Assembly (NCBI GenBank): GCA_002329465.1
Contig: DCTW01000007.1
Coordinates: 3 to 64,002, forward strand
From: Candidatus Woesebacteria bacterium UBA1430
GTDB lineage: Bacteria; Patescibacteriota; Microgenomatia; UBA8517
Direction of reading: 5' to 3'
DNA: 64,000 bases
In this document: piece after piece, positions 2,071 through 50,971 of the stretch
How positions within the stretch are numbered: the first letter of the stretch is position 1
Layout of the letters: each line of letters opens with the position of its first letter
Program-made: the position numbers and the translations under genes
Notes under the pieces: generated by a model
Seen by the model: the letters and a program-made list of their open reading frames with translations, nothing else
Database searches by the model: none
What the model was told of the DNA's origin: nothing

Positions 2071-2522
2071 AAATATATATAGCGTCAGATCATGGAGGTT
2101 ACTACCTCAAAGAAGAGCTTAAAAACTATTTGTCTTCAAAAGGTTACTCTGTCACCGACATGGGAAATTCAAAATTTGATAAAAACGACGACTACACAGA
2201 TTTTATTTTTCCTCTTTCCGAAAAAGTCGCAAAAGACAAAGATTCTATGGGTATTGTTTTAGGAAGATCCGGGAACGGCGAGGCAATCGCAGCCAATAAA
2301 GTTAAGGGAATAAGGGCAGCGCTTTGTCTAAGCGAACGTCATGCCAAAAAAGCTCGCGACAATAACAATGCAAACACTCTTTGTCTGGGTGCAGACTTTA
2401 TTTCTCCCACTACGGCCAAAAAAATTGTTGACACTTTTATAAAAACACGATTTTCAAGAGCAAAAAGGCACAATAGAAGAGTTTCCAAAATAAAAAAATA
2501 TGAATCCGCCCACTTTAAATAG
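2067..2522 (+). CDS. rpiB: ribose-5-phosphate isomerase B
   Basis: MKIYIASDHGGYYLKEEL N-terminus and RpiB/LacAB-like length. ATGA overlap with tpiA. Confidence 0.85.
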   Translation: MKIYIASDHGGYYLKEELKNYLSSKGYSVTDMGNSKFDKNDDYTDFIFPLSEKVAKDKDSMGIVLGRSGNGEAIAANKVKGIRAALCLSERHAKKARDNNNANTLCLGADFISPTTAKKIVDTFIKTRFSRAKRHNRRVSKIKKYESAHFK

Positions 2523-3549
2523 TCTTAATTTTGAGGCTAAAAAAGTTATTCTTAGACTCGATCTGGATGTTGAGTTAAACAGTCAAGAATTGGAAAAAAT
2601 ACCGCGCCTTCAAAATTCTCTTCCTACAATTTCTGCAATATTTTCAAAAGCAGAAAAAATTCTTCTAATAGGTCACGCTGGAAGGCCTGAAGGCAAGTTT
2701 GTCTCAGAATTAAGTTTAAAACCATTAATTTCTTTTTTTGAAATGAACATGGGTAGTACTAAATTTATAGAATTCAATCCTGAGCCGCAAAATCTCGAGT
2801 CTGCAAAAAATGAGTTTTTAAATTCACAAAACAAGCTTTATTTATTGGAAAATCTTAGATTTTGGATAGAGGAGGAAAAAAATAGTCTGGAATTTGCTCA
2901 ACAACTTGCTGATTTTGGTAACGTTTATGTAAACGATTCTTTTGCATCAAGTCACAGGAGCCATGCTTCGACCAACGCACTCCCGAAGTTGATTAGAAAT
3001 AAAGGCGGCTTATGCGCCATCGGAATTAGATTTGAAAAAGAGCTTGCCAATCTTGATAAAGCAATCACAAATCCCAAAAGGCCCGTAGTTTCAATAATAA
3101 GTGGAGTAAAAAAAGACAAACTCAAACACCTCGAAGGAATCAAAAAAATCTCCGACAAAGTGCTTGTTGCGGGCAGATTGCCGGAATATTTTGAGCAACA
3201 GCCGGACGACAAGTTAATTGTTGGAAAGCTCATCCCCGACAAAGAAGATCTTACAGTTCATTCTATAGAACTTTTCGAAAACGAAATTAGCAATGCAGGA
3301 ACGATTATTGTATCAGGTCCTATGGGTAAGTTCGAAGACAATGGCCACAGATTGGCAACGGAAAGAATTCTTAATTCTATAGCCAAAAACATAACGGCAT
3401 TCAAGTTAGCGGGCGGGGGAGATACTCAATGTGCTCTGGACATGTTTGGTTTAAGCGACAAATTTAATTGGATCAGTAGTGGTGGGGGTGCTATGCTTAC
3501 ATATCTTTCAACAGGCACTTTACCGGGCATTGAAGCGTTGGTAAACTAA
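2500..3549 (+). CDS. pgk: phosphoglycerate kinase (short, 349 aa)
   Basis: Blocks RLDLDV, GHAGRPEGK, LENLRFWIEEEKN, YVNDSFASSHRSHAST, GGGDT and SSGGGAMLTYL. Confidence 0.85.
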   Translation: MNPPTLNSLNFEAKKVILRLDLDVELNSQELEKIPRLQNSLPTISAIFSKAEKILLIGHAGRPEGKFVSELSLKPLISFFEMNMGSTKFIEFNPEPQNLESAKNEFLNSQNKLYLLENLRFWIEEEKNSLEFAQQLADFGNVYVNDSFASSHRSHASTNALPKLIRNKGGLCAIGIRFEKELANLDKAITNPKRPVVSIISGVKKDKLKHLEGIKKISDKVLVAGRLPEYFEQQPDDKLIVGKLIPDKEDLTVHSIELFENEISNAGTIIVSGPMGKFEDNGHRLATERILNSIAKNITAFKLAGGGDTQCALDMFGLSDKFNWISSGGGAMLTYLSTGTLPGIEALVN

Positions 3550-3553
3550 AATA

Positions 3554-4666
3554 ATGGTTAAAGTAGGAATAAACGGTTTTGGAAGAATTGGAAGAATTTC
3601 TTTAAGAATTGCCCTTACAAAGGAGAAAGAAAACGTTTCGGTTTGTGCAATAAACACTTCAGGATCAATGGAGGTTGAGGGTTGGGCGCATTTATTAAGC
3701 TACGACACAATGTATCGCCAATTTGAAAAAGAAGTTGTTGCTGAAAAGACAAAAAACGCCAAAGAAGCAACAGACGAAGATCCTCTAATCGGCTATATTA
3801 AAATTAAAGACGAAGATATTAAAATACCCATCCTTGCACAAAGAGATCCTTCAAAAATTCCCTGGAAAAACTACGGGGTAGATGTGGTTATAGAATCAAC
3901 CGGTGTTTTCCGTACCGAAGAAGACGCCAAAAAACACGCTCTCGGAGGAGCCAAAAGGGTAGTAATTTCAGCGCCAAGTAAAGGCGGCAATGTCGGAACC
4001 TATGTGTTAGGCGTAAACGAATATAAAGGCGACGCGGTTGTTTTAAACAACGCAAGCTGTACAACAAACTGTGTTGCACCGGTAGCGGCAGTTATGCAAG
4101 CCAAATTTGGTATAGAAAAAGCAGTCATGACAACAATCCACAGCTACACCGACGACCAAAATCTTCAAGATAATTCAAATAAAGATCTCCGCCGCGCACG
4201 CGCAGCCGCAGAAAACATAATCCCAACGTCAACAGGGGCAGCAATCGCAACAACCGAAACAATACCGGAGCTCGAAGGGCTTTTCGATGGCACCGCGCTT
4301 CGGGTTCCTACGGCAACAGGTTCAATTACCGATTTTACCCTTCTTCTTAAAAAAAATACAACCAAAGAAGAAGTAAACAAAACTTTTATAGAGGCATCTC
4401 AAAACCCGCTTTATAAAAACATTTTGGGGGTAACAGAGAAACCGCTTGTTTCCTCAGACATTATAGGAAGAAGCGAGTCGGCTATTGTAGATTTATCTCT
4501 AACACAAGTAGTAGCAGGCAATCTGGTTAAAATTTTTGCCTGGTATGACAACGAGTGGGGTTACGCAACAAGGCTTATAGAACAAGTAATTCGTGTCGGA
4601 AATACGCTCGAATCTCAAGTCGCACCCACAGATCCAATAACCCTTTCTTTCCAGAAAAATAGCTAA
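3554..4666 (+). CDS. gap: glyceraldehyde-3-phosphate dehydrogenase
   Basis: NGFGRIGR NAD loop, SCTTNC active site and WYDNEWGY C-terminal block. Confidence 0.9.
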   Translation: MVKVGINGFGRIGRISLRIALTKEKENVSVCAINTSGSMEVEGWAHLLSYDTMYRQFEKEVVAEKTKNAKEATDEDPLIGYIKIKDEDIKIPILAQRDPSKIPWKNYGVDVVIESTGVFRTEEDAKKHALGGAKRVVISAPSKGGNVGTYVLGVNEYKGDAVVLNNASCTTNCVAPVAAVMQAKFGIEKAVMTTIHSYTDDQNLQDNSNKDLRRARAAAENIIPTSTGAAIATTETIPELEGLFDGTALRVPTATGSITDFTLLLKKNTTKEEVNKTFIEASQNPLYKNILGVTEKPLVSSDIIGRSESAIVDLSLTQVVAGNLVKIFAWYDNEWGYATRLIEQVIRVGNTLESQVAPTDPITLSFQKNS

Positions 4667-11254: not shown

Positions 11255-12241
11255 ATGAAAATTTTTGTATCTAGAAAAATACCGGGAAATTCGCTTGACC
11301 CTCTTTTAAACTCCGAACACGAGGTTTTGGTATCGGAGTTTGACCGTCCGCTTAGTGCTGAGGAATTTTTAGAAAGAGCAAAAGGATCAGATGCAATAAT
11401 TACGCTGCTTACAGACAAGATTGATAAAGATGTAATCGACGCAATCGGTCCGCAGTTAAAAATAATAAGCAACTACGCAGTCGGCTTTGACAATATAAGT
11501 TTAGACGATGCGACAGAAAAGGGTGTGGTTGTAACAAACACCCCATCAGACGAAGTAAACGAAGCTGTAGCAGAGCATACCTGGGCGCTTATTCTTTCTT
11601 TGGCGCGAAGGATTGTCGAAGCCGATGAATCAACAAGAAGAGGCTCCTACAGAGGTTGGGAGCCCGGAATTTTTTTGGGATCAAGTTTGGTTGGAAAGAC
11701 GCTGGGTATAGTAGGCCTTGGAAGAATAGGCCTAATGGTGGCCCGACGAGCAAAAGGCTTTAATATGCATGTTCTTTATAACAAACGAAGCCGGGACGAA
11801 AAAGCCGAAAACGAATACGCCGTTGAATTTAAAGATCTGGACTCTCTTTTGGCGGAATCAGACGTTGTAAGCCTTCATGTTCCTTTAACGGATGAAACCC
11901 GTCACATGATGAACAAAAACACGTTTTATAAAATGAAAAAAGGCGCAATTCTTGTAAATACGGCACGCGGACCAATCATTCATGAAAGAGAATTAGTAGA
12001 GGCAATAAGACAAGGTCAAATTGGAGCAGCAGGGCTTGATGTTTTTGACAACGAGCCAAACATCAACCCAGAGCTGATAGCCATGGAGAACGTAATACTA
12101 ACGCCGCATATTGCATCAGCTACCAGGGAAGCCAGAAATAAAATGGGAGCTCAAGCGCTGCAGGCGGTTTTTGACTTATTTGAAGGCAAAAAGCCCGAAA
12201 ATTTAGTAAACGAAATGGTTTGGGAAAAACGCCGTACTTAA
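11255..12241 (+). CDS. D-isomer-specific 2-hydroxyacid dehydrogenase (glyoxylate/hydroxypyruvate reductase-like)
   Basis: GIVGLGRIG NAD loop, NTARG and LTPHIASAT catalytic-His block. Confidence 0.85.
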   Translation: MKIFVSRKIPGNSLDPLLNSEHEVLVSEFDRPLSAEEFLERAKGSDAIITLLTDKIDKDVIDAIGPQLKIISNYAVGFDNISLDDATEKGVVVTNTPSDEVNEAVAEHTWALILSLARRIVEADESTRRGSYRGWEPGIFLGSSLVGKTLGIVGLGRIGLMVARRAKGFNMHVLYNKRSRDEKAENEYAVEFKDLDSLLAESDVVSLHVPLTDETRHMMNKNTFYKMKKGAILVNTARGPIIHERELVEAIRQGQIGAAGLDVFDNEPNINPELIAMENVILTPHIASATREARNKMGAQALQAVFDLFEGKKPENLVNEMVWEKRRT

Positions 12242-13283: not shown

Positions 13284-15457
13284 GGTCCATTTTCACCCTC
13301 TTTTTTTTCAATAAAAAAGGTTGGGCTGCAGTGTTTGGTTGGTTTGTTCTCTTGCAAAAACCATTCTGAAATAGTAGGACATCCGGCACACGGCAAAGTC
13401 CCTAGGGTTTTACATATCTCAAGCCGCACAAGCCCGTTTGGTACCCTCCAATCCACACTTTCCCTGCCGGAGAGCAGATGAGTCATAATTTTATTCCATA
13501 TCGGTGAAGCGCCGGTTACACCCGAAGCAACACTGCTCATTGGAGAGTTGTCGTTATTTCCCACCCAGGTAGCCACAAGGTAGTCTTGATTAAATCCAAT
13601 AGCGAGATTGTCTCTCAGATTATTGCTGGTTCCGGTTTTTACGGCCACTTCAGGATGATTTGGTATTACAAGCATGCTGTTTATCCCAAAAGCAGGAGCT
13701 CTTGCAGAGTTATCTCGTAAGATATCAATAAGCATAAACGCAATTCTTTCGTCAAGCACTTTAATAAAACCGCATTTCTCCTCCGAGCCCTCCTTTGCGC
13801 TAACTTCTGCAAGAAATTGTTTGCAGCCTTTAGAATATATAATTTTTCCCTCGGCATCATATATTTTCTCTATGGAGCTTAAACTTGGGCGCATTCCATA
13901 ATTTGCAACCGTTGCGTAAGCAGTCGCAAGTTCGATAATTCGCACATCACCACCGCCCAAAGTTAAAGATAATCCATAGTCCGATGCATCTTTCCAAGTT
14001 GAAATCCCCATTTTTTTTCCCAGCTCCACCATTTTATCAACGCCGTATGAAGCAAGCGTTCTTACGGCCGGCACATTCCTTGACTCAGCAAAAGCACTTC
14101 TTAAACTAATATTCCCCCGGAATTTTCCGTCATAATTTTTAGGAGAATAAGGGTCGGTCCCTGCAACATGGAAAGTTATTGGTGAATCTTTTAACAAAGA
14201 AGCGGGAGTATATCCGTTTTCAAGAGCATACGCATAATTTATAAGTTTTATCGAACTGCCCGGTTGCCTAAGCCTTAAAAGTACGTTTACGTTTCCATCC
14301 ATTTCTGTATCAAAGTAATCCTTAGACCCGACCATCGCCAAAATGTCACCGTTTTTGGGATTAAGAACAATAGCAGCCCCATTTGATACGTTTAAGTGTC
14401 GTATCGATTCTACTTCATTTTTTACTATTTCCTCTATCCTTTTTTGGAGCTTATAGTCAAGCGTTGTTACGATTTTAAGTCCGCCCTTAAGAACCATCGA
14501 TTCGCCATATTTGTTAACCAGTTGATCTTTTACATACATAACAAAATGAGGTGCTTTTATCTCGGTTTTGTTTTTTGAAAATACAATTTTTTCCCCCTTA
14601 GCCTTTTCTGCCTCCTCAAAAGCAATAAATTCGTTCGAAACCATAAGGTCAATCACTTCGTTTTGCCTTTGAATCGAAAGCTCGGGATTATTTCCAAAAG
14701 GGGAAAGCAGCGTAGGGCTTTTGGGCAATCCCGCCAAAAGCGCCGCCTCTGAAAGCGTAAGCTCGGAAACGTCCTTATCAAAATAAACTCTTGACGCTTC
14801 TTTAATCCCGTAAATACTGCCTCCATATGGAACCTCGTTTAGATACATTTCCAAAATTTCATCTTTTGAATATTTTCTCTCGACATCTATGGCAAGCAAA
14901 ATCTCTCGCACCTTTCTTTTTAAGGTTTTCTCTGGTGTAAGCAAGGCATTCTTTACAAGCTGCTGTGTAATAGTCGAGCCACCCGTAACCTTTCCTTCAT
15001 CTAGATAAATACCCAAAGCACGGGTTATACCCTTTACAGAAAAACCGCGGTGCGAATAAAAATTAGCATCCTCGGCAGCTAGAGTTGCAAGTTTTACGTT
15101 AAGCGGTATTTCGGTTAGCTTTACCCTGCTTCTGTTTTTATCTTTATACATTTGATATAAAAGCACGCCATTTCTGTCGTAAATTTTGGTCGAGAGTTCA
15201 ACATCCCGTTGTGTAAGATCCTCGGCCCTTGGAAGATTGTGAAACAAAAAAGCCCACAAACCAAAAAAAACAAATACCAAAGAAAAATACAAAAAAGTTA
15301 TCAAAAAAAGCAGTCTTTGAATGCCGCAAGACAAGATTACCCTCGGTAAAATAAAAAACGCCGAAAAAATTTTTTGCAACAGAAACAAAGCCAAATAAAT
15401 TGTTTTATAAACAGGTTTTCCAATAAAGACAAGGATGTGCGCTGGTTTTGAAGTCAT
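13271..15457 (-). CDS. PBP1A-family bifunctional transglycosylase/transpeptidase
   Basis: GT51 motifs EDANFYSHRGF, GGSTITQQ and RKVRE. Transpeptidase motifs SSIK, SRN and KTGT. Confidence 0.9.
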   Translation of the reverse strand: MTSKPAHILVFIGKPVYKTIYLALFLLQKIFSAFFILPRVILSCGIQRLLFLITFLYFSLVFVFFGLWAFLFHNLPRAEDLTQRDVELSTKIYDRNGVLLYQMYKDKNRSRVKLTEIPLNVKLATLAAEDANFYSHRGFSVKGITRALGIYLDEGKVTGGSTITQQLVKNALLTPEKTLKRKVREILLAIDVERKYSKDEILEMYLNEVPYGGSIYGIKEASRVYFDKDVSELTLSEAALLAGLPKSPTLLSPFGNNPELSIQRQNEVIDLMVSNEFIAFEEAEKAKGEKIVFSKNKTEIKAPHFVMYVKDQLVNKYGESMVLKGGLKIVTTLDYKLQKRIEEIVKNEVESIRHLNVSNGAAIVLNPKNGDILAMVGSKDYFDTEMDGNVNVLLRLRQPGSSIKLINYAYALENGYTPASLLKDSPITFHVAGTDPYSPKNYDGKFRGNISLRSAFAESRNVPAVRTLASYGVDKMVELGKKMGISTWKDASDYGLSLTLGGGDVRIIELATAYATVANYGMRPSLSSIEKIYDAEGKIIYSKGCKQFLAEVSAKEGSEEKCGFIKVLDERIAFMLIDILRDNSARAPAFGINSMLVIPNHPEVAVKTGTSNNLRDNLAIGFNQDYLVATWVGNNDNSPMSSVASGVTGASPIWNKIMTHLLSGRESVDWRVPNGLVRLEICKTLGTLPCAGCPTISEWFLQENKPTKHCSPTFFIEKKEGENGPQIL

Positions 15458-15548: not shown

Positions 15549-17783
15549 CTACTTTAGCGGATAACTAACATTTACGCGATTCATCGGAAAAGGGCACGTC
15601 AGACATATCATCGTGCCAAGAGGATCATGTATTACCAAATGATTTTGCATTTCAATATTTTCAGGCGGAGTATCGGAAGAAGCAAGCGTTTGATTTATTC
15701 TATCTACTTGAACATCCTGTCTAGTAGCCAGATTTTTCGTTGGCAAATTATCTTCAAGAAAATATTCAAATCTTTTTGGACAATCAGCAGATTCGTTTTC
15801 GGGCAATCCGCCGCTATCGGCACACACGCTAAGCCCGACAACTTCATTTGGCTTTGTCGGCCAACCGTGCCCTTTATCCGAAGAATTATAAAATCCTTCT
15901 TCTGCTTTATCCAATACCTCTTTCATTATTCTGTTCCAAATAGGAGAGGCTCCGGATACGCCCGAAACAGCACCGCTCATAGATGTATAGTCGTTGTTTC
16001 CCACCCAGGTTAAAACCAAAGCGTGTGATGTGTATCCGACAGTCCAGTTGTCTCGAAGATCGTTAGTTGTCCCCGTTTTTACCGAAACCTCGGGATGGCC
16101 GCTTACATTAAGATACGAAGAAGCGCCAAAAGCAAAAGAACGGGCATTGTTATCATGAAGGATATGGGAAATTATAAATGCAACACCAGAATTAAGAACC
16201 CGCACGCCCTCGGGCTCGTCTCTATCATATTCAAAAAGTACTTTTCCTTTCCAATCCTCAACTTTAAGGATAGAAACAAGATCTTGTTTTATGCCTTGGT
16301 TTGCGAGCACTCCAAATGCAACGGCCATGTCATAAGGCATCACCTCTCCTCCGCCTAAGGTTAGAGACAGCCCATAATTTTCTGGATCTTTAAAAGTGGT
16401 TATGCCCATCTGTGTCGCAAAATCAATAAAATTCTCTAAACCGTTAAGCGCAAGCACCCTGACGGCAGGAATGTTATAGGAATTTCCAAGCGCGAATCTT
16501 GCTTGTGTAGCACCGTGAAATTGCCCGTCATAATTTGAAGGACAATAAGGTTTCTGTCCTGCCACTAAAAAACAAGTAGGAACATCTGCAAGCGGCGTGC
16601 TGGCAGTTATCTTACCGTCTCGTATGGCCAGTGCATAATTTAAGGGTTTTATCGAACTTCCGGGTTGTCTTTTTGCGAAAATAATATTTACCTTGCCGTC
16701 TTCATCCTCCGCGTTATAATTTTTTGAGCCAACCATAGCAAGTATTTCACCGCTTTTGGGTCTTGTTACCAATGCGGCTCCATTACCGACATCTTGATTT
16801 TTGAGTTTTTCAACCTCATCGAGCACGATCTCCTGTGCATACTCTTGTAGCTCAAGATCAAGAGTGGTTGTTACACGAAGCCCCCCCTTCTCGACAACGT
16901 TGTCGCCATATTCTTTTGCCAGTACTTCTTTAACCCAAAGCGCAAAATGCGCAGCCTTAAGATCTTTCGCTTCAGCATACTTAAGCTCCTCACCAAGAGC
17001 TTGTTCCGCTTCTTCCTCAGTAATATATTTATCTTCTACCATCCTTTTCAAAACAAGAGCTTGTCGCTCTTTTGCATATTCGGGATGGGCTCCAAAAGGA
17101 GAGTAAAGAGTTGGTGCCGCAGTTAGTCCTGCTAAAAGCGAAGACTCAGCCAAGGTCAAATCGTCTGCATTTTTGCCGAAATAAAGCTCGGATGCAGACC
17201 CGATACCGTAAGCCGTTGATCCATAAGGGATCTGGTTTAAATACATCTCCAATATCTTATCTTTAGGATATCTAAGCTCAACGAGTACGGCCAAAACAAA
17301 CTCACGGACCTTTCGCTTAATTGTTCGCTCTGGCGTTAGAAGAGAATTTTTTACCAGCTGTTGCGTAAGAGTGGACCCGCCCTCAAGCTTCTTCCTAAAA
17401 ATAGTTTTGTACAAAGCCCTGCTCATCCCGCTAATCGAAAACCCGGGGTGTTTATAAAAGTCTTTGTCCTCAATGGCTATCGTGGCCTTTTTAACATGAT
17501 CGGGAATTCTCTCAAGAGGTATTGGATTTCTTCTTTGATCGGTATATATTTCATAAATTAATTTCCCTTTTCTGTCATAAAGCTTAGTGGAAATAGCTTG
17601 GTCCTTAGAAATATCACCGGGGAAGGGTATTCCCCAAAAAAACCACAAACCGACAATAAAAAAAATAAAAGTTACCCCTGCAATAACTTTTTTCTTTTTT
17701 GTAAGACTAATTTTTAACAAGCGTTTGTTTTTCTCAAACTGTTTGCCTTGACGCTTTTTGCGCTTCGGATCGGATTTTGTCAT
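15549..17783 (-). CDS. PBP1A-family bifunctional transglycosylase/transpeptidase (paralog)
   Basis: EDKDFYKHPGF, GGSTLTQQ, SSIK and KTGT. ATG at 17783; the track start at 17801 is TTG. Confidence 0.9.
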   Translation of the reverse strand: MTKSDPKRKKRQGKQFEKNKRLLKISLTKKKKVIAGVTFIFFIVGLWFFWGIPFPGDISKDQAISTKLYDRKGKLIYEIYTDQRRNPIPLERIPDHVKKATIAIEDKDFYKHPGFSISGMSRALYKTIFRKKLEGGSTLTQQLVKNSLLTPERTIKRKVREFVLAVLVELRYPKDKILEMYLNQIPYGSTAYGIGSASELYFGKNADDLTLAESSLLAGLTAAPTLYSPFGAHPEYAKERQALVLKRMVEDKYITEEEAEQALGEELKYAEAKDLKAAHFALWVKEVLAKEYGDNVVEKGGLRVTTTLDLELQEYAQEIVLDEVEKLKNQDVGNGAALVTRPKSGEILAMVGSKNYNAEDEDGKVNIIFAKRQPGSSIKPLNYALAIRDGKITASTPLADVPTCFLVAGQKPYCPSNYDGQFHGATQARFALGNSYNIPAVRVLALNGLENFIDFATQMGITTFKDPENYGLSLTLGGGEVMPYDMAVAFGVLANQGIKQDLVSILKVEDWKGKVLFEYDRDEPEGVRVLNSGVAFIISHILHDNNARSFAFGASSYLNVSGHPEVSVKTGTTNDLRDNWTVGYTSHALVLTWVGNNDYTSMSGAVSGVSGASPIWNRIMKEVLDKAEEGFYNSSDKGHGWPTKPNEVVGLSVCADSGGLPENESADCPKRFEYFLEDNLPTKNLATRQDVQVDRINQTLASSDTPPENIEMQNHLVIHDPLGTMICLTCPFPMNRVNVSYPLK

Positions 17784-31415: not shown

Positions 31416-32342
31416 ATGAAAAGGCTCGTGCTTATAGATGGAAATGCGGTTATGCATAGAGCATTCCACGCGCTTCCGCCGCTAACCACTCCCAATAACG
31501 AACCCATTGGAGCGGTCTACGGCTTTACCTCAATGCTTCTGAAGGCAATCGAAGACCTAAGCCCGGATTATATTTTCGTTTGTTTTGATAGAAAAGAACC
31601 GACATTCAGAAAAAAACTCAGCAAAGATTATCAAGCTCATCGCCCCGAAACAGATAAAAGCTTGATACCTCAATTTCCAAAGGTAAAATATCTTCTCAAA
31701 GCTTTAAATGTTCCCATCTACGAAAAAAAAGGATTCGAAGCAGACGACCTTATTGGCACCATTTCTCACTCCGTCATTAGCCATCAGTCATTAGCCATCA
31801 GTCATCAGTTAATCGATGAGGTTATAGTTGTCACCGGCGATCGCGACCTTCTCCAGCTTGTGAATGATAAAGTTAAAGTTTATCTCCCCATAAAGGGCTT
31901 GTCACAAGCAAAGCTGATGGATAAAAAAGATGTGTTTAAGATGCTCGGAGTTACCCCCAAGCAAGTTGTTGATTATAAAGCGCTGATCGGAGACCAGTCG
32001 GACAACTACAAAGGAGTAGGGGGCATAGGCCCGAAAACAGCCTCAAACCTACTTCAAAAATACAATTCGCTGGAAAATATTTATAAACATTTAGATGAAT
32101 TACCAAAAAGTATTAATCAAAAGCTTAAAAAAGATAAAAATTCGGCATTGCTTTCCCAAAAACTTGCACAAATAGTAAAAGATGTACCAATCAAAATAAA
32201 AAAATTCCAAAAATGGGATCTGGGCTCTTCCGATGTTAAAAAAATCCTAAACGAATTTGGTTTTAAAACGCTTGGACAAAGAATATTAAAACTTTCAAAA
32301 AAGCAAATCTCGGAAAATCAAAAAAGGCTTTTTAATATCTAA
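31416..32342 (+). CDS. 5'-3' exonuclease (FEN / Pol I N-terminal domain-like)
   Basis: LIDGNAVMHRAFHA, GFEADDLIGT, VTGDRDLLQL and GDQSDNYKGVGGIGPKTA (H3TH). Confidence 0.85.
   Translation: MKRLVLIDGNAVMHRAFHALPPLTTPNNEPIGAVYGFTSMLLKAIEDLSPDYIFVCFDRKEPTFRKKLSKDYQAHRPETDKSLIPQFPKVKYLLKALNVPIYEKKGFEADDLIGTISHSVISHQSLAISHQLIDEVIVVTGDRDLLQLVNDKVKVYLPIKGLSQAKLMDKKDVFKMLGVTPKQVVDYKALIGDQSDNYKGVGGIGPKTASNLLQKYNSLENIYKHLDELPKSINQKLKKDKNSALLSQKLAQIVKDVPIKIKKFQKWDLGSSDVKKILNEFGFKTLGQRILKLSKKQISENQKRLFNI
31774..31815 (+). repeat. tandem heptanucleotide repeat, 6 units (TCATTAG CCATCAG TCATTAG CCATCAG TCATCAG TTAATCG)
   Basis: Read directly from the sequence. It lies in frame inside the exonuclease CDS and encodes VISHQSLAISHQLI. 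Confidence 0.85.
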
Positions 32343-33446
32343 ATGAAAGTTGCTCTTGTCCACGACTATCTCAACGAATTCGGAGGAGCCGAGCGTGTCT
32401 TGCAGGCTATAAGCGAAATTTATCCCGATGCTCCCATTTATACAATTTACGCCAAAAAGGATTCACCGGCCATGAAGCAAATGGGTAATGTAACTATCAA
32501 AGAGTCCTGGTTTTCTTATCTTCCTTTTGCTCATAAACTTATTTCCCCTCTTCGCTTTTTAATACCTCTTATTTGGTCTTCGTTTAATTTCAAATCCTAC
32601 GATTTGGTCATAACCTCAGCTAATTGGGCAGTCACCAAAGGCATGCGCGGCGCCACGAGAGAAATCTGTTATCTTCATTCTCCTCCTCGCTATCTCTATG
32701 GTTACGACACCTCCAGAAATTGGCAAGGCAAATGGTTCAGCGGAGCAATCAAGGCCTACGCTCTTGTCGTCAATCACTTCATGCGTATATACGACTTTAA
32801 GCAGGCACAAAAAGTTTCTTACTTTATCGCCAATTCACAAAACGTCGCTAAGCGCATCGAGAAGTTTTATCGGCGGAAAAATTACAAAGTCATTTACCCC
32901 CCAATAGATGTTAGTAAATTTAATCATAAGTCATTAGTTATAAGTCATAAGTCAGATTACTATCTAACTGGAGGTCGCATGGCTGCTGCTAAAAATTTTG
33001 ATTTAATTATCAAAGCTTGTAAAAAAGCAAAAGTAAATTTAAAAATTTTTGGCACCGGAATAGAGGAAAGCAACTTAAAAAAAATTGCGAATAAAAATAT
33101 AGAATTTTTGGGAAACATTTCAGATTCCGAGTTAATTAATTACTATAAAAACGCACGTGCATTTATTGTTGCACAAAAGGACGAGGACTTTGGGATCACG
33201 CCTATCGAAGCCGCCGCCGCCGGTTGTTCCACAATTGCATATCGTGGTGGTGGATACCTCGAATCTATAATCGAAAACAAAACCGGTATTTTCTTCGATG
33301 AGCTGACTGTGGGTTCCTTAGTTAAAGCAATTGAACAATTTAAGAATATTACAATCAAGCCCTCAATCCTTACCACCCACGCCCGAAAATTTAGTAAAGA
33401 AAGGTTCCAAAAAGAATTCATTAAATTTATCAATTCAAATGCCTGA
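32343..33446 (+). CDS. GT4-family glycosyltransferase
   Basis: MKVALVHDYLNEFGGAERV N-terminus and the C-terminal EDFGITPIEAAAAG (E-x7-E) motif. Confidence 0.8.
   Translation: MKVALVHDYLNEFGGAERVLQAISEIYPDAPIYTIYAKKDSPAMKQMGNVTIKESWFSYLPFAHKLISPLRFLIPLIWSSFNFKSYDLVITSANWAVTKGMRGATREICYLHSPPRYLYGYDTSRNWQGKWFSGAIKAYALVVNHFMRIYDFKQAQKVSYFIANSQNVAKRIEKFYRRKNYKVIYPPIDVSKFNHKSLVISHKSDYYLTGGRMAAAKNFDLIIKACKKAKVNLKIFGTGIEESNLKKIANKNIEFLGNISDSELINYYKNARAFIVAQKDEDFGITPIEAAAAGCSTIAYRGGGYLESIIENKTGIFFDELTVGSLVKAIEQFKNITIKPSILTTHARKFSKERFQKEFIKFINSNA
32924..32958 (+). repeat. tandem heptanucleotide repeat, ~5 units (TCATAAG TCATTAG TTATAAG TCATAAG TCAGATT)
   Basis: Read directly from the sequence. It lies inside the GT4 CDS and encodes HKSLVISHKSD, in the linker between the two Rossmann halves. 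Confidence 0.8.
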
Positions 33447-48471: not shown

Positions 48472-48548
48472 CGCAAGTGGTCTATATTAAATTAAGGTCA
48501 TAATTTGCACTTGGCCTAAGGTTTTAATTGAAATAAATTTTGCTCTAT

Positions 48549-49757
48549 ATGAAAGTCTTGATGTTCGGCTGGGAATTTCCGCCCCACAACAGCGGCGGAC
48601 TTGGAGTAGCCTGTCAGGGTCTTGCAAAGGCTCTTGGGCAATACGCTGATTTAATTTTCGTTTTACCCAAAAAGCTTGATATAAAACCAAACGGAAAATT
48701 TAAATTAATTAGCGCGGACATAGAAAACATCTCCCTAAAATTTATTAATAGTACGCTTATTCCTTATATTACATCGGAAAAATACTACGGATTGAATCGA
48801 AACAAAAAATCCGTTTACGGACGAACGCTTTTCGAAGAAGTAGAAAGATACGCGGAACTAGCCGGAGAAATTGCCAAAAAAGAAAGCTTTGACATAATAC
48901 ACGCGCATGATTGGCTAAGCTTTGGTGCAGGAATAAATGCAAAAAAGGCAAGCGGTAAGCCCCTTGTTGCTCACATTCACGCAACCGAAATAGACAGAAC
49001 AGGCGGAAACATAAATAAACAAATCTACGAAAAAGAAAAAGAAGGCTTGGAATACGCAGACCGCATAATTTCTGTAAGCGAATTTACCAAAAACATTCTT
49101 CTTAATCACTACCAAATACCCTCTGAAAAAATAGAAGTTGTCCACAACGGTATCGATTTGGCAAATTATACCCTTTCCGCAAATACAGACTTAAGCTTCA
49201 AAAAACTCAAAAGCTTGGGTTTCAAAATAGTCCTTTTTGTAGGAAGAATAACAATCATGAAAGGGCCGGACTACTTCGTCCACGCAGCGCAAAAAGTATT
49301 GAAGCATAACCCCAAAACACTTTTTGTCATGGTCGGGTCAGGGGATATGGAAGGCCAAATTATCGATCAGGTAGCAAAGCTTGGAATTTCGGATAAATTC
49401 TTCTTCACGGGCTTTCTAAGAGGGGCTGATTTATCAAAAGCGTTTAAAGCAGCGGATCTCTTTGTTATGCCTTCAATTTCCGAGCCGTTTGGCCTTACCG
49501 CTCTTGAATCGCTTATTCACAAAACCCCCGCAATCGTTTCAAAACAATCCGGAGTATCGGAGGTATTAAACCAGGTAATGAAAGTTGATTTTTGGGATAC
49601 GGATGAAATGGCAGATAAAATTTTATCCGTTCTAAAATACAAAAGCCTGCATAAAGAAATGAGCACAAATGGCGAAAAAGAAGCAGCCTTTTGTTCCTGG
49701 GAGAGCGCTGCGCAAAAATGTATTAATATTTATAATAAATTAGCCATTAATCATTAG
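48549..49757 (+). CDS. glycosyltransferase, glycogen-synthase-like (GT4/GT5 fold)
   Basis: FGWEFPPHNSGGLGVACQGLAKAL N-terminus and the SEPFGLTALESL E-x7-E motif. ATG at 48549. Confidence 0.8.
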   Translation: MKVLMFGWEFPPHNSGGLGVACQGLAKALGQYADLIFVLPKKLDIKPNGKFKLISADIENISLKFINSTLIPYITSEKYYGLNRNKKSVYGRTLFEEVERYAELAGEIAKKESFDIIHAHDWLSFGAGINAKKASGKPLVAHIHATEIDRTGGNINKQIYEKEKEGLEYADRIISVSEFTKNILLNHYQIPSEKIEVVHNGIDLANYTLSANTDLSFKKLKSLGFKIVLFVGRITIMKGPDYFVHAAQKVLKHNPKTLFVMVGSGDMEGQIIDQVAKLGISDKFFFTGFLRGADLSKAFKAADLFVMPSISEPFGLTALESLIHKTPAIVSKQSGVSEVLNQVMKVDFWDTDEMADKILSVLKYKSLHKEMSTNGEKEAAFCSWESAAQKCINIYNKLAINH

Positions 49758-49771
49758 TCATTAATCATCAA
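49744..49771 (+). repeat. tandem heptanucleotide repeat, 4 units (CCATTAA TCATTAG TCATTAA TCATCAA)
   Basis: Read directly from the sequence. It spans the 3' end of the GT gene, and the TAG of unit 2 (49755-49757) is the stop codon. Confidence 0.8.
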
Positions 49772-49774
49772 GCT

Positions 49775-50971
49775 ATGAGCTCAATCTGCATTTATTTCCA
49801 AGTCCACCAGCCAAGAAGAATCAAAAGGTTTAGAATTTTTGATATCGGTAAAGAGGAGGATTACTTTAAAGACGATTCCAATACAAACCTAAACAATAAA
49901 AAAATTATCGAGAAAGTAGCCTCAAAGTGTTATATTCCTACAAACCACTTGCTTCTTAGTCTATTGAATAAACACCCCGAATTTAAAGTGTCATTTTCCT
50001 TTTCCGGCCTTGTACTCGAGCAGCTAAAAGAGTATTCACCCAAAGCACTAAGTTCTTTCCAAAATTTAGTGGCCACAAAAAAAGTGGAGCTTTTAAGCGA
50101 AACATATTATCACTCTCTCTCCTTTTTGTATTCAGAGGAAGAATTTAAAAGTCAAGTTGGTCTCCACAAAAAAATTATCAAAAAACTTTTTGGCGTAACA
50201 CCCAAGGTTTTTAGAAATACAGAGCTAATTTACAATAATGACCTGGCAAAACTCGTAGAAAAAATGGGATATAAAGGCATCTTGGCAGAAGGTGTGGATA
50301 ACGTTTTAGACTGGAGAAGTCCAAATTTTATATATAAGCCAAAGGATGCAGATATCGCGCTTCTTCTTAAAAACTACCGTCTCTCAGACGACATTGCGTT
50401 CAGGTTTTCCGAAAAATCTTGGAAAGAATACCCGCTCACAGCGGAAAAATTTGCAAACTGGATAAATGCAGTTAACGGTAACGGAGAAGTAATAAATCTT
50501 TTTATGGATTACGAAACTTTCGGTGAACATCAATGGGAAGACACGGGCATTTTTAAATTTCTAGAGAAACTTCCCTCAGAAATTCTTAAACATCCGGACA
50601 ACGATTTTGTAACGCCAAGCGAAGCGATCAAAAAATACAAACCCAAAGACGAGCTTGATATACCGGAGTTTATTTCCTGGGCAGACGTAGAAAGAGATCT
50701 CTCCGCCTGGCTTTCAAACTCAATGCAAAAAGACGCTATCCACAAGCTCTATTCTTTAAGGGAAAAGGTAATAAATTCGAAAAACAAAAGTTTGATCAGA
50801 GACTGGAGACTGCTTACGGCTTCCGACCACTTCTATTATATGTGCACCAAATGGTTTGCGGACGGAGATGTGCACAAATATTTTAACCCCTATGATACGC
50901 CGTATGACGCGTTTCGCTATTTTATGAATGTTTATACCGATCTAAAGCTTCGTGTTAATAAAAAACAATGA
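49775..50971 (+). CDS. glycoside hydrolase family 57 (alpha-amylase/glucanotransferase-like)
   Basis: YFQVHQPRR N-terminal block and the MDYETFGEHQWE catalytic-region block. Confidence 0.8.
   Translation: MSSICIYFQVHQPRRIKRFRIFDIGKEEDYFKDDSNTNLNNKKIIEKVASKCYIPTNHLLLSLLNKHPEFKVSFSFSGLVLEQLKEYSPKALSSFQNLVATKKVELLSETYYHSLSFLYSEEEFKSQVGLHKKIIKKLFGVTPKVFRNTELIYNNDLAKLVEKMGYKGILAEGVDNVLDWRSPNFIYKPKDADIALLLKNYRLSDDIAFRFSEKSWKEYPLTAEKFANWINAVNGNGEVINLFMDYETFGEHQWEDTGIFKFLEKLPSEILKHPDNDFVTPSEAIKKYKPKDELDIPEFISWADVERDLSAWLSNSMQKDAIHKLYSLREKVINSKNKSLIRDWRLLTASDHFYYMCTKWFADGDVHKYFNPYDTPYDAFRYFMNVYTDLKLRVNKKQ

Follow-up and report, generated by a model that had tools for sequence, protein, structure and literature searches.

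A translated heptanucleotide array in a variable exonuclease loop of a Woesebacteria genome

Taken together, the evidence presented here favors, with a probability that we put at roughly 60%, the reading that an array of tandem heptamers in a 5′-3′ exonuclease gene of Candidatus Woesebacteria bacterium UBA1430 is a heptanucleotide microsatellite of the short tandemly repeated repetitive (STRR) or long simple sequence repeat (LSSR) type, which grew in a permissive loop of the enzyme and is carried there as translated filler. The array itself most likely contributes no function to the enzyme. This array, A1, occupies positions 31773-31809 on the + strand of the 64,000-nucleotide stretch of DNA that we analyzed (contig DCTW01000007.1; hereafter the window) and consists of about 5.3 heptamer units, as defined by Tandem Repeats Finder (TRF), direct reading, pattern statistics and period scans. 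It belongs to an already known type of repeat; the addition is the occurrence of such repeats in loops of core proteins of the candidate phyla radiation (CPR).

A heptamer array in a hypervariable loop of the exonuclease

Read directly, the units of A1 are TCATTAG, CCATCAG, TCATTAG, CCATCAG and TCATCAG. TRF reports positions 31773-31805 as a repeat of period 14 (2.4 copies, 100% matches, score 66, unit GTCATTAGCCATCA) and positions 31773-31809 as one of period 7 with 5.3 copies. The heptamers begin at 31774 and the codons at 31773, and the in-frame translation is VISHQSLAISHQLI, at approximately residues 120-132 of the exonuclease. An earlier reading of this DNA, made from the letters and a list of open reading frames (ORFs) and called here the sequence-only reading, had placed tandem heptamers inside this gene, where they are indeed present, but had counted six units, 42 nt and 14 codons. 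The sixth of these, TTAATCG, agrees with the YCATYAR family at 3 of 7 positions and codes for L-I-D in the ancestral motif IDEV; its codons are ancestral and the array therefore amounts to about 5.3 units and 37 nt rather than six units and 42 nt.

A search of the 64-kb window for YCATYARYCATYAR with at most one mismatch returned 8 matches against 1.18 expected, a number that none of 100 shuffles reached, and all 8 lie within A1 and two further arrays, A2 and A3, every one on the + strand. A period-7 autocorrelation scan of the same 64 kb picked out exactly A1, A2 and A3, with 0.0 arrays in composition-preserving shuffles, and zero arrays were found in the window at any other period from 4 to 12. 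The shuffles, both for pattern counts and for the period scan, rule out a chance origin. A1 also shares with LSSRs the head-to-tail repetition of a unit of 5-11 nt to a length that is excessive relative to chance. With three arrays in 64 kb, A1, A2 and A3 form a single dispersed YCATYAR family, as the sequence-only reading had proposed for A1. Weaker TRF rows (1100, 19007, 58752, 62038, 63857 and others) were inspected and found unconvincing as heptamer arrays.

The host of A1 is a stand-alone, FEN-like 5′-3′ exonuclease of 308 aa (31416-32342, + strand), an ORF that matches Pfam families PF02739 (5_3_exonuc_N, E 2e-51) and PF01367 (5_3_exonuc, E 3e-31) and whose closest named homologues belong to Candidatus Woesebacteria, Microgenomates and Patescibacteria. 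In an alignment of 40 exonuclease sequences the sole hypervariable region is the segment from GFEADD.IGT to V.VTGDRD, and here the orthologue alignment bears out the suggestion that the array sits in a variable linker as an insert. Among the 120 best orthologues this linker measures 10-15 residues in 60 and 17-48 residues in 60; it has 22 residues in the window and 11 in insert-free members of the subclade such as P0006 (ISHQANVDEVI), a net insert of +11 residues (33 nt) that is a multiple of neither 7 nor 21 nt. In an AlphaFold model built on the exonuclease alignment (mean predicted local distance difference test score, pLDDT, 90; predicted template modeling score, pTM, 0.88), residues 123-134 form a coil between a helix (109-122) and a strand (135-139), with pLDDT below 50 at 126-130. 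Judged from the alignments and this model, A1 is a lineage-specific insert in a hypervariable and, by prediction, disordered loop. As a separate observation, many orthologues available as proteins only carry cyclic peptides at this site of the kind that heptamer arrays would encode, for example IPNSKFQIPN, as from (AAATTCC)n; such arrays are mostly inferred from translation and confirmed in DNA for P0079 only. One apparent member of the YCATYAR family, the SHQSLV peptide of P0098, was rejected when its DNA proved to be an inverted GGTCTCT/AGAGTCC element.

The repetition in A1 sits at the level of DNA and not of peptide. Its identical 14-mers fall in different frames, such that one is translated as VISHQ and the other as SLAI, and the same units recur in spacer DNA in A3; on these two grounds a peptide-level repeat was ruled out. 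They also weigh against the idea that the repeat is kept for its peptide, as a selected flexible linker rich in S, H, Q, L and I or as a heptad-like motif. Such selection would fit the retention of a same-length insert down to 65% identity and the recurrence of the SHQS[LS][AV]I family in two proteins, but half of the orthologues have no insert, others carry unrelated peptides at the A1 site, the residues concerned are modeled as low-confidence coil and one strain variant is a residue shorter, and we consider this explanation very unlikely. A heptamer array in any frame gives one cyclic seven-residue peptide (S-L/S-V/A-I-S-H-Q/K/stop), because 7 and 3 are coprime and every frame must run through the same cycle; the common codon phase of the three arrays, which had been taken as informative, is automatic for any heptamer array. 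A hairpin or other structural role for A1 was likewise ruled out, since the array folds no better than its shuffles (z = -0.8). A pattern search of the 64-kb window found no inverted partner for it.

The distribution of stop-type triplets is suggestive at first sight. Counting as in frame those units whose last three bases form a codon, and pooling A1 and A2 with a same-family array in a 51%-identical orthologue (L126), TAG or TAA occurs in 0 of 5 in-frame and 6 of 8 out-of-frame units (Fisher one-sided p = 0.016). The claimed avoidance of in-frame stops thus stands as a count, but any intact ORF is bound to be free of in-frame stops, and the accompanying claim that out-of-frame units keep TAG is true of two A1 units and fails in the third. 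A stop-free TCATCAG array that later drifted from C to T where the change was harmless, in an AT-rich genome, explains the pattern equally well. A 65%-identical orthologue, L004, carries a stop-free perfect (TCATCAG)x4.6 at the same site, and the change may have run in either direction, by repair of TAG or by C-to-T drift. As for orientation, the reverse strand of TCATTAG, CTAATGA, contains both TAA and TGA, which constrains how an array can be oriented in coding sequence. In a scan of a genome collection (described below), 59 of 60 TCATTAG arrays among the matches listed lie outside long ORFs. TAG is a genuine stop codon in this organism; as a side observation, it is the rarest of the three in the 44 long ORFs of the window (TAA 26, TGA 13, TAG 5).

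Close relatives add a time scale. The unit-number polymorphism proposed as a check by the sequence-only reading was not found: A1 is identical across strain-level contigs save in one lineage with a 3-nt in-frame deletion (TCATTAGC, then the three-base gap, then CAG). This deletion maps to window positions 31795-31801 in the comparison with L211-L213 (99.7-99.8% identical), corresponds to the 307-aa protein variant P0242 and was found in contigs from at least three samples. It is the sole indel in 6,927 aligned bases, and the chance of its landing in the 42 of 6927 nt concerned is 0.006. A3 is identical in 6 strain-level contigs (99.3-99.8% identical). In a 92%-identical relative A1 has the same length with 4 substitutions and A2 has a 3-nt indel; in the 65% relative (L004) the length of A1 is unchanged and the array homogeneous; and in a 61% relative A1 is shorter and decayed and A2 is decayed at the same length. 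L217, the sister of the 61% relative in a rough neighbor-joining tree, is without the insert and has one unit, TCATCAA (TCT CAT CAA), at the site. Over these deeper divergences the insert measures 0, +6 or +11 residues. These comparisons indicate that A1 is old, its peptide family inherited down to orthologues of 61-65% identity, and that it has probably been expanded, contracted or homogenized over long times while behaving in the short term like ordinary coding sequence, with mainly point substitutions and codon-sized indels.

The same record bears on phase variation, the possibility that A1 is a contingency locus whose gene would be toggled as heptamers are gained or lost. Heptanucleotides do drive switching in pathogens, for example at the HMW adhesin promoters of Haemophilus influenzae and in neuO of E. 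coli K1. At A1, however, the frame is kept in all of at least nine strain-level contigs, with the in-frame 3-nt deletion as the sole variant; the heterogeneous units suppress slippage, the host genes are core housekeeping genes and the array length is conserved across deep divergence. We find it scarcely credible that A1 acts as such a switch.

Sister arrays and the heptamer families of related Microgenomates

The exonuclease gene is preceded by FtsH and followed by a family 4 glycosyltransferase (GT4) and Fpg. This GT4-family enzyme (32343-33446, + strand; 367 aa; an ORF with Pfam domains Glycos_transf_1 and Glyco_transf_4) hosts A2 (32924-32954, + strand), which reads TCATAAG, TCATTAG, TTATAAG, TCATAAG and TCA and is reported by TRF as period 7 with 4.4 copies. 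Its in-frame peptide, NHKSLVISHKS, lies in the inter-domain linker, which spans 28 aa in the window versus 23-27 aa in most related glycosyltransferase (GT) sequences, with a baseline of 23-25 aa among orthologues. A3 (49739-49773, + strand; ATTAG, CCATTAA, TCATTAG, TCATTAA and TCATCAA; TRF period 7 and period 14) forms the 3′ end of a glycogen-synthase-like GT4/GT5 glycosyltransferase gene (48540-49757, + strand; ORF and Pfam). Frame analysis shows that the stop codon of that gene, TAG at 49755-49757 on the + strand, is supplied by A3, from its first in-frame unit. In the public gene call this protein (P0121) starts at 48549, has 402 aa and ends ...KLAINH; the final residues LAINH are encoded by A3, and orthologues finish ...YNSLI, about 3 residues sooner. 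The remainder of A3 makes up the whole 17-nt non-coding spacer before the ATG at 49775 of a family 57 glycoside hydrolase (GH57; 49775-50971, + strand; ORF and Pfam), which starts 1 nt past the array and lacks an upstream Shine-Dalgarno (SD) sequence. In relatives of 67% and 61% identity the glycosyltransferase gene stops at TAA, and the spacers that follow (54 and 157 nt) contain no array. The sequence-only reading had noted both arrays as relatives of A1, and they are present and of the same family, but their extents differ from the 32924-32958 and 49744-49771 given there; they had been described there as lying inside genes, which is correct for A2, but A3 is not read through, its first in-frame TAG being the gene stop.

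The position of A3 invites the explanation that the arrays are cis-acting sites in RNA or single-stranded DNA for a protein that contacts about 7 nt per subsite (Csp-, S1- or CsrA-like), in which case A3 would modulate translation of GH57. The filling of the spacer up to 1 nt before the ATG is in keeping with this, as are the scarcity of SD sequences (4 of 44 genes) and the compatibility of genome-specific units with co-evolution of a binding protein, and binding sites were proposed for the TAACTGA repeats of Beggiatoaceae, where heptamers lie upstream of starts and across the preceding stops in 13 cases (MacGregor 2015, PMC4679880). However, A1 and A2 lie deep in their genes (relative positions 0.41 and 0.52) with no evident regulatory role there, the orientation of A3 is the "reverse" of that in the Beggiatoaceae layout, the spacers of the relatives (54 nt and 157 nt) are array-free and no candidate binding protein was identified. 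We regard this explanation as doubtful.

Some further variation was observed around these two arrays. The 92%-related L001 has, near its position 11,700, six extra residues (HPPADS) in the second linker of the A2-host GT relative to the window near 33,120, and, compared with L001, the L003 copy of this GT apparently carries a frameshift close to the 5′ end and has a gene call that starts 31 nt later. In the 67%-related L219 (3707-3776) the GH57 spacer holds a near-duplicate of the gene's first ~20 nt (ATGTCTAGTATTTGCTTTTAC, then ATGAGTAGTATTTGCT), which suggests either that the start is mis-called or that the 5′ end carries a short duplication. At positions 17233-17274 of the Woesebacteria contig L215, an (AAATTCC/AAAATCC) array starts at the last bases of a Fic-domain gene ending at 17234 and is thus a second heptamer array placed on a gene end, like A3.

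Period 7 also prevails in related loci. We compared the window with 80 Microgenomates-like metagenome loci (L125-L204, 813 kb) gathered via the exonuclease alignment, which all surround one gene and so are not a random genome sample. These contain 36 period-7 arrays, against 2, 5, 3, 2, 0, 0 and 1 arrays of periods 5, 6, 8, 9, 10, 11 and 12, respectively, and 0.0 period-7 arrays in shuffles of the 813 kb. The period-7 density, about 44 per Mb, is in line with the 3 arrays in 64 kb of the window. Among the 40 arrays scanned (36 metagenome, three from the window and one from L004), 24 lie inside long ORFs. As a sanity check on a small sample, 50 kb of E. coli yielded 0 arrays of period 5-12. A further comparison covered 83 exonuclease sequences, comprising the 80 metagenome loci, the window, L001 and L004: the best period is 7 in 9 of the 18 linkers of at least 16 residues, and none of the unexpanded linkers has a comparable period-7 autocorrelation.

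The units are specific to the locus. Mean unit distance is 1.89 within loci versus 3.03 between loci, and the pairwise distance among the window's arrays is 1. The exonuclease linker holds (AAATCCG)n in L127, (AAGTTCA)n in L133, (AAAATCA)n in L135, a perfect (CCAAAAT)x5 in L215 and YCATYAR units in L126. The GT linker is filled by the TCATAAG family in the window (...ISHKSDYY) and by the AAATCCG family in L127 (...KSETRNYY), and a 950-residue protein carries differing heptamer units after the residues AYY in L151 (4412) and L160 (9207). Two of these loops have also received a larger element, a 116-nt hairpin with inverted heptamer arrays (GAAGATG ... CATCTTC) and ends GACGGT ... ACCGTC, which lies in frame in the exonuclease loop of L131 (3661-3776) and in the GT loop of L133 (13847-13962). 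The two copies, on two contigs of one metagenome with unrelated flanks, are identical at 99 of 116 nt (85%) and fold beyond their shuffles (z = -3.5 and -6.2); the exonuclease loop of P0098 is filled by a similar inverted element. These sequences show that exonuclease and GT loops do take up independent insertions, and by analogy the hairpin element resembles the in-frame Rickettsia palindromic elements (RPE) or a miniature inverted-repeat transposable element. As a separate observation, the 426-residue GT-like ORF of L133 (13238-14515) holds, beside the hairpin element, (AAAATCA)n at 13562-13606 and (AAATATC)n at 14079-14127.

Local growth or genome-wide spread

In the preferred reading, A1 arose from local events. 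It would have started from a single local proto-unit, since the S-H-Q codons TCT CAT CAA and AGT CAT CAG contain TCATCAA and TCATCAG; it would have grown by slipped-strand mispairing or by out-of-register templated repair; and selection would have acted as a filter, passing the coding-strand orientation, stop-free in-frame triplets, loop positions and net length changes divisible by 3 nt. The single TCATCAA unit in the insert-free L217 means that a local origin is sufficient for A1.

Several observations weigh against this preferred reading of A1 as a locally grown microsatellite. All three arrays of the window are of one family (distance 1) and other loci share units among their arrays, which pure local slippage leaves unexplained. 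The net insert of 33 nt, being no multiple of 7 or 21, needs compensating non-unit indels. No unit-number variant, such as ongoing slippage would produce, was found among 90% protein clusters or the 6-9 strain-level contigs, the one 3-nt deletion being the only length change. Finally, the period-7 excess over the frame-neutral periods 6 and 9 is without an established mechanism.

The first of these points leads to a different scenario, in which a sequence-specific genome-wide process (ectopic gene conversion, microhomology-templated copying or mobile, enzyme-driven insertion) spreads the arrays, each genome keeping its own heptamer family and repeatedly seeding tolerant loops. The families are indeed genome-specific, with YCATYAR three times in the window, AAATCCG three times in L127 and AAAATCC-like units four times in L215, and the same loops hold different families in different lineages (TCATYAG, AAATCCG, AAGTTCA, AAAATCA and AAAATCC in the exonuclease; TCATAAG in the window and AAATCCG in L127 in the GT). 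The 116-nt hairpin, 85% identical in two genes and two genomes, lies exactly at A1-type and A2-type loops, and the L004 array is perfectly homogeneous despite only 65% protein identity. Against such spread, the direct arrays revealed neither terminal repeats nor target-site duplications nor an enzyme associated with them, and A1 does not fold; a local proto-unit at the A1 site suffices; between the window and its 92% relative the arrays evolve as ordinary coding sequence; and the loci were sampled around one gene. We view genome-wide spread as possible, though on balance rather unlikely. Still more tentatively, one could imagine a heptamer-specific process in Microgenomates, and perhaps in CPR bacteria generally, that writes or copies genome-specific arrays and hairpins into the chromosome and re-seeds the loops of core proteins, the arrays evolving in concert. 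The three YCATYAR arrays of the window would then be its products, and its mechanism may be shared with the TCATTAG arrays of cyanobacteria. We raise this idea as a speculation that we ourselves think improbable.

Relation to known repeats

Heptanucleotide arrays have been known since 1990, when the STRR sequences of cyanobacteria were described, with the units CCCCAGT, TTGGTCA and CAACAGT reportedly recorded by Mazel and colleagues in that year. Calothrix heptanucleotides are also mentioned by Rehm et al. 2015 (PMC4692102). Like STRRs, the arrays described here are tandem heptanucleotides that occur as many short, dispersed arrays, and TCATTAG, equivalent to TTAGTCA, is one base from the STRR2 unit TTGGTCA. 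We scanned 185,579 species genomes for at least 4 YCATNAR units and found at least 129 arrays, in a sample whose taxon proportions are indicative only and in which the window's own genome was not among the matches listed. TCATTAG was the dominant unit, with 60 arrays among the matches listed, in 4 to 18 or more copies in cyanobacteria. These TCATTAG matches came overwhelmingly from filamentous cyanobacteria (mostly Nostoc, Microcoleus and Tychonema, with Anabaena and Calothrix), which lends weight to the likeness to cyanobacterial STRRs that the sequence-only reading had pointed out; other taxa among the matches listed were some Bacteroidota, one Parabeggiatoa and one CPR genome (Yanofskybacteria). 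A protein search with a synthetic (SLVISHQ)n query gave 15 weak matches, all of them short hypothetical ORFs, of which four carry names (from Nostoc, Microcoleus, Microcystis and Shewanella); no real CPR protein was among them, and the search added nothing more than a renewed pointer to cyanobacteria. Unlike the STRRs, which are mostly intergenic, A1 and A2 are translated in conserved core genes and A3 straddles a gene end and a spacer; the host is a member of the CPR and Microgenomates with a small genome, the unit TCATTAG is none of STRR1-3, and the window's arrays are short (4-5 units) and heterogeneous.

Three further heptamer systems invite comparison. According to Mrazek et al. 2007, as relayed in PMC4679880 and PMC4692102, heptanucleotides are the commonest LSSR in many prokaryotes and slippage was proposed as their origin. 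In the same accounts, that survey, by Mrazek, Guo and Shah, defined LSSRs by units of 5-11 nt and found that repeats within genes are mostly multiples of 3 nt. The window's arrays share with these LSSRs their over-long tandem repetition, the strong preference for period 7 and slippage as a proposed origin; in contrast to the survey, the 7-nt arrays here lie in frame in conserved proteins, and CPR genomes were unavailable to it. MacGregor 2015 (PMC4679880) described TAACTGA direct repeats in marine Beggiatoaceae, Cyanobacteria and Bacteroidetes that place stops in all frames on one strand and are translated, as "reverse" copies, at protein peripheries; that study reports 13 cases in which heptamer repeats immediately precede start codons and overlap the stops upstream. 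Its Table 3 also lists TGACTGA with the reverse translation SVISHQS, which is the TCATCAG unit of the family in the window. Both systems are built on a heptamer with TAA, TGA and a C on one strand and a translatable other strand (SVISYQL there, SLVISH followed by a stop or SSVISHQ here), and in both some arrays overlap upstream stops or abut starts and others are translated. The order of TAA and TGA, however, is swapped in CTAATGA at the same composition, A3 alone abuts a start codon and does so in the opposite orientation to the downstream gene, and the window's arrays are mostly intragenic (A1 and A2 mid-gene) rather than 5′-proximal. The GGGAATC/GGGGAYT heptamers of Xanthomonas and Nostoc (Rehm et al. 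2015, PMC4692102) are likewise a genome-specific family, with about 180 arrays per genome and typically about 4 units, whose arrays differ in length from one related species to another but keep their positions. They are, in contrast, G-rich, quadruplex-forming and intergenic, and the window's arrays are AT-rich, unstructured and largely coding.

With respect to position within proteins, the closest parallel is to the RPE, which Ogata and colleagues reportedly recognized in 2000 as selfish DNA lying in frame in protein-coding genes. These elements are discussed in PMC1779305 and PMC10969869. As there, a reduced genome tolerates repeat DNA of a non-coding type, in frame, within the surface loops of its conserved proteins, and the orthologue alignments and AlphaFold model place A1, too, as an in-frame insertion in a permissive surface loop of a conserved protein. 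Where RPEs are hairpins of 100-150 nt, A1 is a direct array of about 37 nt with no palindrome (z = -0.8) and no sign of transposition; the nearer analogues of RPEs are the 116-nt hairpin elements of L131 and L133, which occupy the same loops. In the library that we searched, no paper connects heptamer or heptanucleotide repeats with CPR, Patescibacteria or Microgenomates, and none presents TCATTAG or a rotation of it as a repeat of bacteria, the matches to these sequences being eukaryotic AP-1/Yap sites.

These findings extend heptamer arrays to the ultra-small genomes of CPR bacteria, which are nearly all coding, and there the arrays persist as translated filler in a few permissive loops of core enzymes, different lineages filling the same loops with different genome-specific heptamers. 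Neither the period of 7 nor the preference of each genome for a unit of its own has, to our knowledge, ever been explained. With hundreds of genomes and few defined loops, the Woesebacteria offer a comparative system in which local slippage can be set against templated or mobile spread. Length variation in CPR core proteins, commonly recorded as "insertions," can derive from repeats, and masking of repeat-derived inserts is advisable before phylogenies or structure predictions are made.

Several other contigs contain unusual heptamer arrangements. Within 1.4 kb (2380-3745) of a contig of Candidatus Yanofskybacteria (L071, MGKI01000002.1; Parcubacteria) there are five different heptamer arrays, including (TTGGTCA)n and, inside a 710-residue ORF, (CTGATGG)n. 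The former is the unit of STRR2, classical in cyanobacteria. Heptamer arrays in inverted pairs, with the potential to form long hairpins, were observed in L143 (7233-7269 and 7330-7368), L163 (8153-8253), L172 (1180-1450) and L187 (2443-2567). The L143 pair, on a CPR-like contig, has units of the TAACTGA family known from Beggiatoaceae, L172 carries a 170-nt (CAGCTGA/TAGCTGA) array, and the pairs in L163 and L187 are within long ORFs, near the N-terminus. As for the window as a whole, its G+C content is 39% and, with ORF-based gene calls, about 80% of the long ORFs are on the + strand and an SD-like core lies upstream of 4 of the 44.

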